A DNA stretch of 50,459 bases from Centroscyllium fabricii (taxonomy: Eukaryota): the NCBI GenBank assembly GCA_051313645.2, contig JBNRSN020000026.1, positions 72,987,542 to 73,038,000 of the forward strand, given 5' to 3'. This document shows, in pieces, positions 7,636-48,715 of the stretch; position 1 is the first letter of the stretch, and each line of letters opens with the position of its first letter. Made by a program: the position numbers and the translations under genes. Below the pieces are notes generated by a model. It was given only the letters and a program-made list of their open reading frames with translations, was not told the DNA's origin and searched no databases.

Positions 7636-7918
7636 ACAAATGCAAGAAGTCACACAACACCAGATTATAGTCCAAAAGTTTTATTTTAAATCACAAGCTT
7701 TCGGAGCTTTTGCCCCTTCGTCAGGTGAAAGAGAGACTGACTTAAAGAACGCACATATGTGATGATGGGAAAATCCGATATCTCCCACATCTCACCTCAG
7801 TAGAGATAGACACACAAAGGCTTATTAACATATTTTAAGTGTTACATTTAAGCATAGCACATATAGAGAGAGATAACAATGTGGTCTCTCCAGTTGTTTC
7901 ACATCACACCTCAGCTGA
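7636..7918 (-). mobile_element. PLE-like family A fragment with extended internal sequence
   Basis: caaatgcaagaagtcacacaacaccag...tcacaagctttcggagc...cttcgtcaggtga. The downstream part (cacatctcacctcagtagagatagacacacaaagg) is homologous to 16400-16440 in reverse. Confidence 0.8.
7691..7728 (-). ncRNA. Minimal type I hammerhead ribozyme motif (family A)
   Basis: Minus strand TCAC-CTGACGA-A-GGGGC AAAA GCTCC-GAAA-GCTT-GTGA: stem I TCAC/GTGA, intact CUGANGA and GAAA core, 5-bp stem II, palindromic AGCU stem III, CUU cleavage triplet. Confidence 0.75.
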
Positions 7919-8282
7919 GGGGGTTATGGGGAGAGGGTAGGGGGGGGATGCTGGGTTTGGATGATCAGCCATGATCTCATCAAAATGGTGGAGCAGGCTC
8001 GAAGGGCCGAATGGCCGACTCCTGCTCCTATCTTCTGTGTTTCTGTGTGAAGCACGCATGACTTACACAGACAGGCGTTTGTATTTCAGTTATCGCTGGA
8101 CACAGAAGGGGAAATTAACTGGTGCGGTGGCCCCAAGAGGGGGATCATATGGTGGAACCTATGCGGTAGCCCCATCAAGTGATCTGTCTACGATAGCAAA
8201 ATACTGGAAATTCGAAATAACAACCGAAAATGCTGGAAAAACTCAGCAGGCCAGGGCAACATCGGTGGAGAGAGAAATATAG

Positions 8283-8318
8283 AGTCGACGTTTCGGGTTA
8301 GGACCCTTTGTCAAGACT
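8283..8318 (-). ncRNA. Minimal hammerhead motif, U3-A8 core variant (family B)
   Basis: Minus strand AGTC-TTGACAA-A-GGGT CCTA ACCC-GAAA-CGTC-GACT: stem I AGTC/GACT, stem II GGGT/ACCC, palindromic ACGU stem III, GUC site. Confidence 0.7.
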
Positions 8319-8563
8319 GAAGCCAGGAAATGAAACAGGTGGGAAGGCCGGGGGAGCTGGGAGAGAGCAACAGGGAAGAGAAAACCAAAGAGAGTAATGA
8401 AGATGAACAAGGTTGAAGAGCCAAGCGGAGATCTGGTCCAAGGGAGGAGCAGAACTTCTTCAAGGTGGGCATTCCTGGAAGAGGTGTGGCCGTGAACCAG
8501 ACACTTGCAGGGTAGCAAAATACTGCAGACGCTGGAAATCCGAAATATCATCAGAAGTGATCT

Positions 8564-8598
8564 GTTTTGAAGAAAGGTCATCGACCTGAAACGTTAAC
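8564..8598 (+). ncRNA. Degenerate hammerhead motif (family B2 variant)
   Basis: GTT-TTGAAGA-A-AGGTC ATC GACCT-GAAA-CGTT-AAC: U3.G8 wobble core, 5-bp stem II, GUU site. Confidence 0.5.
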
Positions 8599-44052: not shown

Positions 44053-46330
44053 ACACTCACTCACTCAAACACACACAACACAAACACACTCACTCACTCA
44101 AACACACACACCACAAACACACTCACTCACTCAAACACACACCACAAACACACTCACTCACTCAAACACTCACTCAAACACACACACCACAAACACACTC
44201 ACTCACTCAAACACACACACCACAAACACACTCACTCACTCAAACACACACACTACAAACACACTCACTCACTCAAACACACACACTACAAACACACACA
44301 CCTCAAACACACACTCACTCAAACACACACTCACTAACTCAAATACACACACACTCATTCAAACACACACACACTCATTCAAACACACACTCACTCATTC
44401 AAACACACACTCACTCATTCAAACACACACACACTCATTCAAACACACACACTCACTCATTCAAACACACACACTCACTTATTCAAACACACACTCACTC
44501 ATTCAAACACACACACACTCATTCAAACACACACACTCACTCATTCAAACACACACACTCACTCATTCAAACACACACTCACTCATTCAAACACACACAC
44601 ACTCATTCAAACACACACTCACTCATTCAAACATACACACTCACTCATTCAAACACACACACACTCATTCAAACACACACTCAGTCATTCAAACACACAC
44701 ACACTCATTCAAACACACACTCACTCATTCAAACATACACACTCACTCATTCAAACACACACACACTCATTCAAACACACACTCACTCATTCAAACACAC
44801 ACACTCACTCATTCAAACACACACTCACTCATTCAAACACACACACACTCATTCAAACACACACTCACTCATTCAAACACACACTCACTCACTCAAACAC
44901 ACACACACTCATTCAAACACACACACACACACTCATTCAAACACACACACTCACTCATTCAAACATACATACTCACTCATTCAAACACACACACACACTC
45001 ATTCAAACACACACACACACTCATTCAAACACACACTCACACTCATTCAAACACACACACACTCATTCAAACATACACACTCACTCATTCAAACACACAC
45101 ACTCACTCATTCAAACACACACTCACTCATTCAAACACACACACACACTCATTCAAACACACACACACTCATTCAAACACACACTCACTCATTCAAACAT
45201 ACACACTCACTCATTCAAACATACACACACTCACTCATTCAAACACACACATTCAAGCATACTCACCTTAAACACACACACTCACTCATTCAAACACACA
45301 CACACTCATTCATTCAAACACACACTCACTTATTTAAACACACACTCACTCACTCAAACACACACACCTCAAACACACACTCAAACACACGCACACAAAC
45401 ACACCTCAAACACGTACATTCAAACACACACTCAAATACACTTCAACCACACATTCACTCAAACACACACACCTCAAACACTCACTCAAACACACACACA
45501 TAGGGTAGATAGAAAGAAACGTTTTCCCTTAGTAGAGGGGTCAATAACCAGGGGGCATAGGTTCAAGGTAAGGGGTGGGAGGTTTAATGGGGATTTGAGG
45601 AAGAACTTTTTCACCCAGAGGGTGGTTGGAATCTGGAACTCACTGCCTGAAAGGGTGGTAGAGGCAGGAACCCTCACAACATTCAAGAAGCATTTAGATG
45701 AGCACTTGAAATGACATAGCATACAAGGCTATGGACCAAGTGCTGGAAAATGCGATTAGAATAGACAGGGCTTGATGGCCGGCGCGGACACGATGGGCCG
45801 ATGGGCCTCTTTCTGCGCTGTATAACTCTATGACTCTATGACATACAAACATACCTTCCTTAAACACATACACTCAAACACACACACTCTCACTCAAATA
45901 CACACTCACTCAAACACACACTCACTCAAACACACACACCTCAAACACACTCACTCAAACACACACTCACTCAAACACACTCACTCAAACACACACTCAA
46001 ACACACACAAACACACCTTCAACACATACACTCAAAAACACACTCACTCAAACAGACACTCACTCAAACACACACTCACTCAAACACACACAAACACTTA
46101 AACACACCTTAAATACACATACTCACACTAACACACACTCACTCAAAAACACACACACACAAGCATTCAAACAAAGCTTAAACAAACACTCACAAACACA
46201 CCCCTCAAACACACATGCACTCAACCGCACCTCAATCACACACACTTACACACACACATATTGACTGTCTCTCCCACACACACTCAAGCACACACATAAT
46301 CACTCTCACACACTCACATAAACACACACA
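44053..46330. repeat. ~2.3-kb CA-rich minisatellite, unit approx. CACTCATTCAAACACACA(CA)n, with an embedded CR1 fragment
   Basis: Dozens of 20-24 nt units, most homogeneous at 44350-45250; almost no G on the + strand. Confidence 0.95.
45501..45843 (+). mobile_element. CR1 LINE 3' fragment (second subfamily) inside the minisatellite
   Basis: Highly similar to the reverse complement of 24542-24885, with a (ctctatga)n tail. Confidence 0.92.
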
Positions 46331-48597
46331 GTGGAGGCTGGTGATTCTCTGAACTAATTTGCATCTTGAGCCCACCACGTGTCGCTTTCCAGAATGAATT
46401 GCACAGGGGCTGGTTTTGATTTCAGGTACAGTTGGGTGGGATTCTTCACTCGCTCGCCTGTTTGTTCTATTTACAGATTTATATTTTGGAGGGTGGGGGG
46501 TGGGGACATCTTACGAAGTGTAACCAAGGTCGCTAAAAGTGGGGACTGTAGCCGCCACCCACGTCATTACCCATACAGGCCGATGTTTTATCCTTGATTA
46601 ATTTCCTTGCTAAAAATTATATTTTAGAAGGACTACTGGCTCAGCGTATTCTTTTTTTCCATTTTTTTTTCCATATACATTATTTTTTTGCGTGGCAGTT
46701 TCAGCCGCCGGCCGCGGGGGTGTGATGGTGCATGTCGCTATTAACTTTCTCCGGCATCGATTAAGCGAGAGTCTATGTGCCCCATGCGAGGCGGTACTCT
46801 GCATAATGAATTGCATGTTCGATGTGCATCGGATCATTTATCTGATTGTGCACGGATCAATGGCTCTGTAAATGTGTGTGTGTGTGTGTGTGTAGGGGCG
46901 GGTGGGGGGTGGAGGGAGCTGGAGAGATCAGGGAAGGAGCGACAGTCATTGCTTTCCCAAGTACAACACTACAGTACAGTGTGTGTTTGTGTGTGTGTCT
47001 GTGTGAAAGACGAGAGGAGCGAGAGACTAGCTTTTGGTAAATATTGCGTGTCAGCAGTCTGCTGGAAGGACCTGATCATGTATTGCGAAGCAGGCACAGA
47101 TCAGACGTGCGACGGGATGAGGAATATTCCTGACAGTGCGCACACGGCGATCGCGTTTACTGTTTGCCATCTGTTTACCCCGCGCTCCGGTGGATTGGGA
47201 ATCACCGACAGACACACAGGTAAAGAATGCTAGCGAGAGAGAGAGAGAGAGGGAATCCAAAACAACAAGCTGCGTCTGACCCCCCCACATTTCCGTGGCA
47301 GGTCTTCCTTCCCCTGCGATCGAAATGTGCATGCACATCGTCGGGATCGTTTTCCCCACCTCCCGTGCCCTGTAATCTAGTCTATCAAACGTGCGATATT
47401 GGCAACTCCCCGTGTTATGTCTGTGGCTCACGGTAAAGGCCGCTCAGTTTTCGCTACCGGATAAGCTGACCTTGTGGTGTGCAAATGCCATATAGAATAG
47501 ATTGGCAGAAACGCGGTCTTACAGGGTCTCCATTGGTATATGTGTGTGTGTGTGTGTTTCATTGACGCATTCCTTGCAACATGTACCAGGTTCCTATATA
47601 TAAAAAAAACCGATTCGCTGGCACTGCTCCCCGTACCGGTTCGAGACAAAGAGCTTTCCTTGATTCAAGTGGGGATAGAATGTGGCATACCTTTCACTTG
47701 TTCTCAGAAGGCCATAACTCTCCGAGCCTCGCTCTTTTCCAGCCGAAACGGGTTCACACTCACCCACTGGTTCTGTGTGTGATATATGGCCAACACTCCT
47801 AACTCAACTGCACGCTAGATTAATGAATATTTATCGTCTGTTCCGGCCCGCCGGTAAATTTCAGACTCTGCCCCTCACCCCACCCCCCTCCTTTGACGTC
47901 TTAGAATAGCTCACTTAAAATAATCGAGGAAAGACAATTATATTCTGAAACTATTATATGACGGCTGAAAGGTAGCATCATCGCCTCCTCCTCTTCCCAG
48001 TAATTCAGTGGCGATCTCCACCACCTCAGTTGCAGTGAGCGCTCGATAGTTCCTTATTGCAACAGTCCCTTCCGATAATCGATGCCAATCGTTGTACAGA
48101 AGGCTACAGAAGGGTGTTCACTCCCTCCCCCCCCCCCTCCCCCTCCAATTTCAAGCGTACCTCTTGGCCTGCGAGATTCATCTGCAGCTTTCGACCCGGC
48201 CTTGAAGCAGCGCCATGTGGAAGATTTCGACGCGAGGGGAGTCTCTTGTTTTGCCAGTGGAGATGGCATCATGTTGTATGTCACCTGGATCGTTGCACCT
48301 TGCTACGGTGACCGTCGCTAAAGCTTCTGCCTGAAGCTGCTGGTGCTATACGTTGAAGTAATTAAGACTGAACATCAATCAGTGATGACTGTACAGTATT
48401 TATTTTTTGGACCAGCAATTCTAATGCTAAATATTAGAATAAATGCCCTCGTTACTTCCAGAGCTTTTTTTTTAACGAGAAGCACCCCCCCTCCCCCCCT
48501 CTAAAACATGATGTGGAGGTGCCGGTGTTGGACTGGGGTGGACAATTGCAAGAAGTCGCACAACACCAGGTTATAGTCCAACAGTTTTACTTTAAAT

Positions 48598-48633
48598 CAC
48601 AAGCTTTCGGAGCGTTCGCCCCTTCGTCAGGTG
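48598..48633 (-). ncRNA. Minimal hammerhead motif (family A)
   Basis: Minus strand CAC-CTGACGA-A-GGGGC GAAC GCTCC-GAAA-GCTT-GTG. Confidence 0.68.
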
Positions 48634-48679
48634 GAAAGAGAGACTGACCTAAAGAAAACACAGGTCCAGTCTCTCTTTC

Positions 48680-48715
48680 CACCTGACGAAGGGGCGAACG
48701 CTCCGAAAGCTTGTG
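48680..48715 (+). ncRNA. Minimal hammerhead motif (family A)
   Basis: CAC-CTGACGA-A-GGGGC GAAC GCTCC-GAAA-GCTT-GTG. Confidence 0.68.

Follow-up and report, generated by a model that had tools for sequence, protein, structure and literature searches.

The short repeats scattered through a 50,459-nt stretch of the Centroscyllium fabricii genome (hereafter the window) are very probably copies of the 3' end of an autonomous Penelope-like element (PLE), truncated at the 5' side and in many cases folded back; the full-length element occurs elsewhere in the genome, and the hammerhead motif is likely to be active only in the RNA of this parent and is predicted to be inactive in the stubs.

Minimal Hammerhead Motifs in the Window

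All five intact hammerheads reported by the first-pass annotation were borne out in coordinates, strand and stem II loop (AAAA, AGC, AUAA, GAAC and GAAC in coordinate order; Table 1), and a descriptor demanding a stem I of 3 bp together with the two core boxes, which matched these five in the window, had no match in any of 200 two-base-block shuffles. Each motif contains the core boxes CUGANGA and GAAA-UH together with stems I and II, has a palindromic AGCU junction in place of a stem III loop, and shares an extra A between positions 9 and 10.1 as well as a G10.1-C11.1 pair. The motifs at 48598 and 48680 belong to opposite arms of a single insertion, so that the five motifs represent four insertions. 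The two degenerate copies also noted in the first pass are matched by copies at 29011-29135 (-) and 41323-41446 (+). Two details needed qualification: the CAC...GUG stem I holds in general, the motif at 16499 having CGC/GUG instead, and of the AATAAA and fixed 3' tail said to follow, the former reads AGTAAA at 48598 and the latter is complete only at 41828 and 48598, the three tail-less copies ending 31-43 nt before the complete tail end. An Rfam scan gave no match to the hammerhead models at E<=10; its matches were one tRNA and, below gathering scores, miRNA models driven by hairpins.

As judged from their sequence, the five motifs are the minimal type I hammerhead of Penelope-like pseudo-LTRs (pLTRs). 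This class, already proposed in the first pass, is supported by the same motif in both pLTRs of a parent with RT and GIY-YIG (see below). In the main passages and supplement of Cervera and De la Pena (2014, PMC4209133), the PLE min-HHR likewise has no stem III loop, a palindromic 15.2/16.2, an extra base between 9 and 10.1, G10.1-C11.1 and a short stem I; in the supplement, the GC-UU junction recurs in a motif from a turtle and the UCAC/GUGA stem I in one from a lamprey, whereas the 5-bp stem II of the C. fabricii motif is unlike the min-HHR of these passages. Neither they nor supplement file 2 hold a shark entry. According to the same passages, min-HHRs in metazoan PLE pLTRs are mostly lone copies spread genome-wide, some lie on opposite strands 100-700 bp apart, and few occur in full elements, ~3 kb apart.

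A Full-Length Parent Element

A link to a full-length element with RT and GIY-YIG, suggested as a check in the first pass, was found. Among 30 loci matching the ORF 5' region, 12 carry a hammerhead and tail immediately upstream of the ATG; fetched at greater length, 10 of these 12 have the hammerhead in both repeats and 5 an unbroken ORF of 880-890 aa. The parent consists of a pLTR, an 890-aa ORF (RT/Zn-linker/GIY-YIG) and a second pLTR, with hammerheads 3.2 kb apart in both repeats, the second one ~400-550 nt after the stop. Particular to this element in comparison with described Neptune PLEs, the fixed tail terminates exactly at the ATG and the first hammerhead lies ~90 nt upstream of it.

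The ORF matches RVT_1 in Pfam (E=3.8e-9) and contains, by pattern, DKG, RT, CX4CxxC and GIY-YIG motifs, the last as VVYLIRC...YIGET with downstream R, H, E and N, and between RT and EN a zinc-finger linker, CHSNLCKTC at residue 752, which fits CX2-5CxxC. Pfam returned no GIY-YIG match and assigned no family to the C-terminal 370 aa, and a PDB sequence search with the ORF gave no meaningful match (best E 0.037). We assign the parent, its clade placed from motifs alone, to the autonomous Neptune-type EN+ PLEs (Craig et al. 2021, PMC8557442; Arkhipova et al. 2013, PMC3846280), with which it shares a single ORF with RT, Cys linker and C-terminal GIY-YIG, partial tandem pLTRs, a head-to-head inverted 5'-truncated copy, a 30-40-bp tail at one end only and target duplications. 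Nematis also has a Cys linker (PMC8557442), and Penelope/Poseidon elements, unlike this ORF, have none. The element appears to be young, since synonymous divergence among four parent ORFs is only 1.2-2.3%; pN/pS among them is 0.48-0.84, a value based on few changes that is no proof of selection. Literature searches for Penelope-like Neptune elements in chondrichthyans and for shark Penelope elements with a hammerhead ribozyme found none.

A degenerate hammerhead-like motif after the stop codon was considered as a dimer partner and rejected, as it has no AGCU. Donor-like GTGAGA upstream and CCCCAG downstream of the parent hammerhead raised the idea of a 5' UTR intron, for which no fitting joint or loose end was seen among the matches listed. 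Assembled contigs from five runs cover the element; that these runs are RNA is a guess, and ends, strand and level are not readable from them.

Window Insertions as Probable Truncated, Often Folded-Back 3' Ends

Twelve insertions of the element were found in the window, five of them inverted according to BLAST; a further inverted one has only a short second arm (24402-24427).

Table 1. Insertions of the element in the window, with their hammerheads, target duplications and related copies.
Coordinates	Strand	Insertion	Hammerhead	Target duplication	Related copies
7633..7922	-	single arm, 5'-truncated, tail-less 3' end (~290 nt, 3' UTR/pLTR)	intact, 7691-7728 (-)		91.7% identity over 289 nt to 3' end of full element L052
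10811..11006	.	fold-back: tail-less arm 10811-10895 (-), tailed arm 10897-11006 (+)	cores cut at 5' side in both arms	~12 bp, one mismatch	
16275..16587	+	single arm, 5'-truncated, tail-less 3' end, sister subfamily	intact, 16499-16535 (+)	11 bp, 16264-16274 and 16587-16597	relatives at 94-98% identity extend into GIY-YIG C-terminus
17382..17441	+	60-nt stub, tail only	absent		
22596..22642	+	47-nt tail-less stub	absent		
24324..24427	.	short fold-back	absent	12 bp	
29011..29163	-	tailed copy	degenerate core (U4 changed)		92% over 153 nt to L002
39970..40110	.	fold-back	both arms cut 3' of hammerhead	13 bp	
41323..41446	+	tailed single arm	degenerate (G12 changed, stem II shortened)		
41743..41955	.	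fold-back: tail-less arm 41743-41831 (-), tailed arm 41830-41955 (+)	intact, 41828-41867 (+), predicted paired to opposite arm	12 bp	
48508..48762	.	fold-back: tailed arm 48508-48643 (-), tail-less arm 48670-48762 (+)	intact, 48598-48633 (-) and 48680-48715 (+), both predicted fully paired	~11 bp	
49743..49926	.	fold-back	both arms cut within stem II, 5' core absent	~14 bp, one mismatch	

Fifty arms compared with the 3' ends of 11 long elements matched over lengths between 41 and 527 nt, the 5' limits falling at no fixed position, and the 3' ends of the arms were bimodal (26 of 50 at positions 133-136, 24 at 81-105), tailed insertions ending at the ATG and tail-less ones 31-55 nt before it. 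Inverted insertions have 10-14-bp duplications on either side and, in nearly all cases, a tail on just one of their two arms; in a sample of 600 kb, taken as evenly spaced stretches of the genome, 11 of the 12 inverted insertions have exactly one tail.

The first-pass annotation had instead seen a distinct non-coding PLE-derived family, and such a pLTR-derived, SINE- or retrozyme-like family might be self-transcribed, cleaved as a dimer, circularised and re-inserted by PLE enzymes. Stubs indeed outnumber ORF starts by ~125 to 1 (100,586 exact hammerheads vs 802 exact tail-ATG-ORF junctions in the genome), ORF sequence is present in none of the 12 window insertions (the parent ORF had no tblastn match in the window), direct tandems at short distance occur in a few places in the genome (spacing of 93 nt in L012 and ~200 nt in L052), and vertebrate derivatives of this kind, including one chondrichthyan, are described in parts of a preprint (bioRxiv 10.64898/2026.07.22.740005). 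We nevertheless consider this origin very unlikely: the copies correspond to the 3' end of the autonomous element itself, cut back to varying degrees at the 5' side, no defined unit with a shared 5' boundary apart from that end was found, the inversion junction and target duplication are individual to each insertion, and relatives of the two longest window copies extend into the ORF (among loci like the 16499 copy, 6 of 11 others, in 5 insertions, reach its C-terminus). The non-LTR retrozymes in those parts of the preprint are similarly pLTR-related, non-coding and furnished with a type I hammerhead, but form direct tandem arrays of a defined unit, whereas in the window the copies occur singly or as inversions and begin at differing 5' positions; no direct tandem of hammerhead-bearing units was seen in the window or among the 21 insertions of the sample. 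Because the references were 11 long elements only, a minor non-autonomous subfamily may exist.

Truncation of the parent could be understood by analogy with the green anole Poseidon element PAc (Frangieh et al. 2024, PMC11167929): the ORF protein would nick the target and initiate reverse transcription inside the RNA at two sites, most cDNAs would end early, and about half would acquire a mirror-image arm. PAc also has two preferred 3' ends that define the tail and a hammerhead near the ORF start; it differs in that its hammerhead contains the ORF start and that reverse transcription begins within the ORF, 111-118 nt from this start.

Predicted Folding and Cleavage

Three of the five intact motifs lie in fold-back insertions, where they are predicted to be fully base-paired and masked, and the remaining two lack a tandem partner. 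The stub hammerheads are therefore predicted to be inactive, the antisense arm of the fold-backs out-competing the ribozyme fold. By nearest-neighbour calculation, two folded monomers (-21 to -23 kcal/mol) and other dimers (-24 to -29 kcal/mol) are both more stable than the active dimer (-18 to -20 kcal/mol), so that efficient dimer cleavage is not predicted. Hammerheads with H17=U triplets cleave poorly.

Obligate dimeric action is predicted from the anatomy of the motif and from published relatives, and one vertebrate PLE hammerhead cleaved only after the element's protein had been added (PMC11167929). We somewhat favour a scheme in which the two hammerheads of the parent transcript, 3.2 kb apart, would swap strands via AGCU/AGCU, probably aided by the ORF protein, and slowly cut each other after CUU.

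Copy Number and Local Density

The exact hammerhead copies in the C. fabricii genome (at least 100,586) compare with ~4,000 in the coelacanth and ~9,000 in Xenopus in the above passages of PMC4209133. The proposed density of one copy per ~5 kb applies to the window (12 insertions in 50 kb) and not to the genome sample (21 in 600 kb, or one per 29 kb). To speak of a family that has "spread ribozymes" is thus an overstatement, given the masking predicted in fold-backs, the lack of tandem partners otherwise and a density that is local.

The roughly sevenfold local excess, together with the AATAAA after the motif, might suggest that the host co-opted some stubs as cleavage/polyadenylation elements. 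We regard this as extremely improbable, since an intact core is absent in 7 of the 12 window insertions, 3 of the 5 intact cores are predicted to be masked, insertions lie on both strands, and density is uneven among the sample stretches too (3 insertions in L108). No host gene was identified, as Pfam gave no match for any of the 127 open frames scanned out of the 172 in the window of at least 70 aa, a search that short exons would escape.

Core Conservation and an Extra-U Variant

Relaxing the six fixed 5' core positions raised the number of copies by 8% (to 109,491) and relaxing GAAAGCUU by 12% (to 114,205), a gain of ~1.5% per site; N7 and loop II vary widely and the core is constant. A fixed core with variable N7 and loop II between source lineages fits, at the level of sequence comparison, selection in the parents and not in the stubs, and the earlier interpretation of a free loop and fixed core as a selected RNA would hold for the former only. 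Stem changes within the family are one-sided (A-U/G-U) with no two-sided compensatory change; covariation appears only between families, a second one in the sample combining the same core with an ACGU junction and with stems I and II of other sequence.

An additional U lies within the catalytic core of a CUUGANGA variant that is present in 5,516 exact copies with three loop II backgrounds and occupies both repeats of the long elements L051 and L057, a distribution not easily reconciled with a strict requirement for the canonical core. That this lineage cannot cleave yet spread on its own seems rather unlikely to us; if so, either cutting is dispensable for movement or a core-dead "cheater" was cut in trans by intact partners. 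It is possible, although we are doubtful, that the parent motif is kept more generally as a folding or protein-binding element beside the start of reverse transcription, with cleavage dispensable for spread. Apart from the variant, the disfavoured active dimer in silico would agree with this, as would the anole element, in which catalytic mutants left in vitro insertion unaffected and no RNA-seq ends fell at the cut site (PMC11167929), and the Naiad PLEs, which spread without canonical hammerheads (PMC8557442). However, all catalytic positions are fixed across source lineages while N7, the free core position, is variable, the second family retains core and palindrome with other stems, and cleavage by the insertion variant is still possible, as is its movement in trans. 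This alternative is about the function of the parent and is compatible with an origin of the stubs by truncation.

Significance

Earlier publications have described the motif, its occurrence as lone copies throughout genomes and the layout with an inversion and a tail (the layout with a single tail in PMC8557442, Fig. 2 legend, PMC3846280 and PMC11167929). Our finding, real but ordinary, is of one more family, very abundant, in a class already described, and it amends the notion that a ribozyme occurs every 5 kb. The role of PLE hammerheads has been called unclear (PMC8557442), and this family offers material for its study, with parents that are young and intact, insertion junctions numbering more than 100,000, and a core variant that is widespread and can be compared with the canonical motif. 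If the CUUGANGA lineage did indeed spread without cleaving, it would be a natural experiment on the need for Penelope hammerhead cleavage.

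Hammerhead motif and its conservation

All five hammerhead motifs described in the window by the first-pass annotation are present, and a descriptor of core plus stem I gave 5 matches there against none in 200 shuffles. The exact motif pattern matches at 100,586 sites of the 7.21-Gb genome; the reversed pattern, used as a control, matches at none. From 5' to 3' the motif consists of stem I (3-4 bp), CUGANGA, an extra A, stem II (5 bp with a loop of 3-4 nt in each motif), GAA, AGCU, U and stem I, and the cut is predicted to fall after CUU. A single copy is unable to close a standard stem III, because only GC lies between A15.1 and U16.1. 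The recognition of a Penelope hammerhead also holds; the same motif is found in both repeats of ORF-bearing elements.

In a tally of 50 arms (an arm being one match to the element's 3' end) the catalytic positions are nearly invariant; variation is seen at N7, in loop II and at one base of stem II. Freeing the 5' core in the pattern raised the genome matches to 109,491, and freeing GAAAGCUU to 114,205. Core change amounts to ~1.5% per site, close to synonymous divergence, and the core is therefore fixed in source lineages, with drift in the copies. A core variant with an extra U (CUUGANGA) has 5,516 exact copies genome-wide on three loop II types, and two long elements (L051 and L057) carry it in each of their repeats. 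A second family in the genome sample combines an identical core with different stems and an ACGU junction. Decayed copies in the window represent at least two other hammerhead-bearing families with this junction, two of the copies being fold-backs, i.e. head-to-head pairs of arms (Table).

Parent element

A parent with an RT and GIY-YIG ORF, anticipated by the first-pass annotation, was found. GIY-YIG coding sequence lies upstream of the motif in three (L001, L006, L007) of the first ten pattern loci, and a further locus (L011) has ~810 ORF codons between one inverted and one direct hammerhead. Searching with the 5' part of the ORF yielded 30 loci, 12 of them with hammerhead and tail immediately before the ATG, which is the end point of the tail in the parent; exact tail-ATG-ORF junctions number 802 genome-wide. 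When these 12 were fetched at 7 kb, ten carried the hammerhead in both repeats (spacing mostly 3.1-3.3 kb) and five an unbroken ORF of 880-890 aa. The protein matches RVT_1 and contains a DKG motif, RT motifs, a CX4CxxC linker and GIY-YIG residues, a build shared with Neptune-type elements as presented in PMC8557442 and PMC3846280. Synonymous sites differ by 1.2-2.3% among four ORFs and the two repeats within one element are 97-100% alike; the family is therefore young.

Among long elements (L047-L058) with ORFs 97-99% alike, the 3' UTR preceding the hammerhead differs in sequence and in length (~390-545 nt between stop codon and stem II), and loop II types are mixed with UTR types, which suggests recombination. 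One of them (L053) has a donor-like GTGAGA upstream of the hammerhead and a pyrimidine tract with CCCCAG downstream, possibly delimiting a 5' UTR intron that would enclose the hammerhead (L053:4931-4761, minus strand). Its ORF stop is directly followed by a hammerhead-like motif in degenerate form (CUGACGU, a hairpin of 5 bp, GAA; L053:5290-5240, minus strand), partially duplicated in an 8-bp stem ~175 nt further (L053:5115-5070, minus strand). The post-stop motif occupies the same place in other long elements and is kept across subfamilies, without AGCU; it is possibly a relic of an older pseudo-LTR.

Insertions in the window and the genome

Using the last 136 nt of one full element as query, 17 arms were identified in the window, grouping into 12 insertions. 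BLAST shows five of them as head-to-head pairs, and in a sixth the second arm is short; the motifs at 48598 and 48680, previously counted as separate copies, belong to one insertion. Each of the six fold-backs, as well as the insertion at 16275-16587, shows a target duplication of ~10-14 bp. The insertion at 7633-7922 is nested inside one LINE-like 3'-end copy; we take the LINE-like copies to be of CR1/L2 type.

Features of the window
Feature	Position	Strand	Remark
tRNA gene	3887-3960	-	anticodon GUU (Asn); 68.4 bits
52-bp tandem repeat	4324-4759
Long CA-rich minisatellite	44000-46300
LINE-like 3'-end copies	6530-6670, 7921-8046, 15151-15398, 20601-20741, 23285-23532, 28470-28708, 29399-29539
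Short LINE-like open frames	22814-23434, 24625-25092, 49030-49431
Decayed ACGU-junction hammerhead repeats	8313 (-), 8568 (+), 13471 (-), 25238-25361, 28708-28829, 30620 (-), 34616 (-)

Sixty evenly spaced 10-kb stretches, chosen irrespective of content, contained 33 arms in 21 insertions. Since 12 insertions in 50 kb compare with 21 in 600 kb, the window is ~sevenfold denser, and the proposed frequency of one copy per ~5 kb applies to the window but not to the genome sample. Twelve of the 21 sample insertions are inverted, 11 of these with exactly one tailed arm, and the twelve hold 11 of the 16 intact cores. The 3' ends of all 50 arms fall into two groups, at positions 133-136 (26 arms) and 81-105 (24 arms).

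Ribozyme activity and published systems

Energy predictions favour alternative folds over the active dimer, and they pair the motif with the opposite arm in both of the fold-backs that have intact cores; in these models both features would count against efficient activity. For published minimal hammerheads, inactive monomers and low-activity dimers are reported in PMC4209133, and dimer cleavage is reviewed in PMC6765202. The anole motif requires the element's protein, and hammerhead mutants left insertion in vitro unaffected (both PMC11167929); of nine Xenopus dimers, one cleaved (bioRxiv 10.64898/2026.07.22.740005).

PMC4209133 already contains the motif, lone copies spread over genomes and pairs on opposite strands, and its supplement includes a motif from a turtle whose junction matches the one here; inverted copies with a one-sided tail were described in PMC8557442 and PMC3846280. 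Literature searches retrieved no report of a PLE hammerhead from a shark; the supplements of bioRxiv 10.64898/2026.07.22.740005 may include a family from a shark.

Truncated copies of an autonomous element

The first-pass annotation had proposed a distinct non-coding family. Aligned to 11 long elements, the arms match over 41 to 527 nt, and the 7691 copy is 91.7% identical to the 3' end of one of these elements (L052) over 289 nt. Of the 11 other loci with the greatest similarity to the 16499 copy, six (representing 5 insertions) reach the ORF C-terminus by tblastn, with an ORF stretch of about 50 to 265 codons. The range of match lengths and the extension of 16499-type relatives into the ORF speak against a distinct non-coding family; judged from these alignments, the copies form a truncation series. 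The repeats are ordinary truncated ends of an autonomous element, and likely inert.
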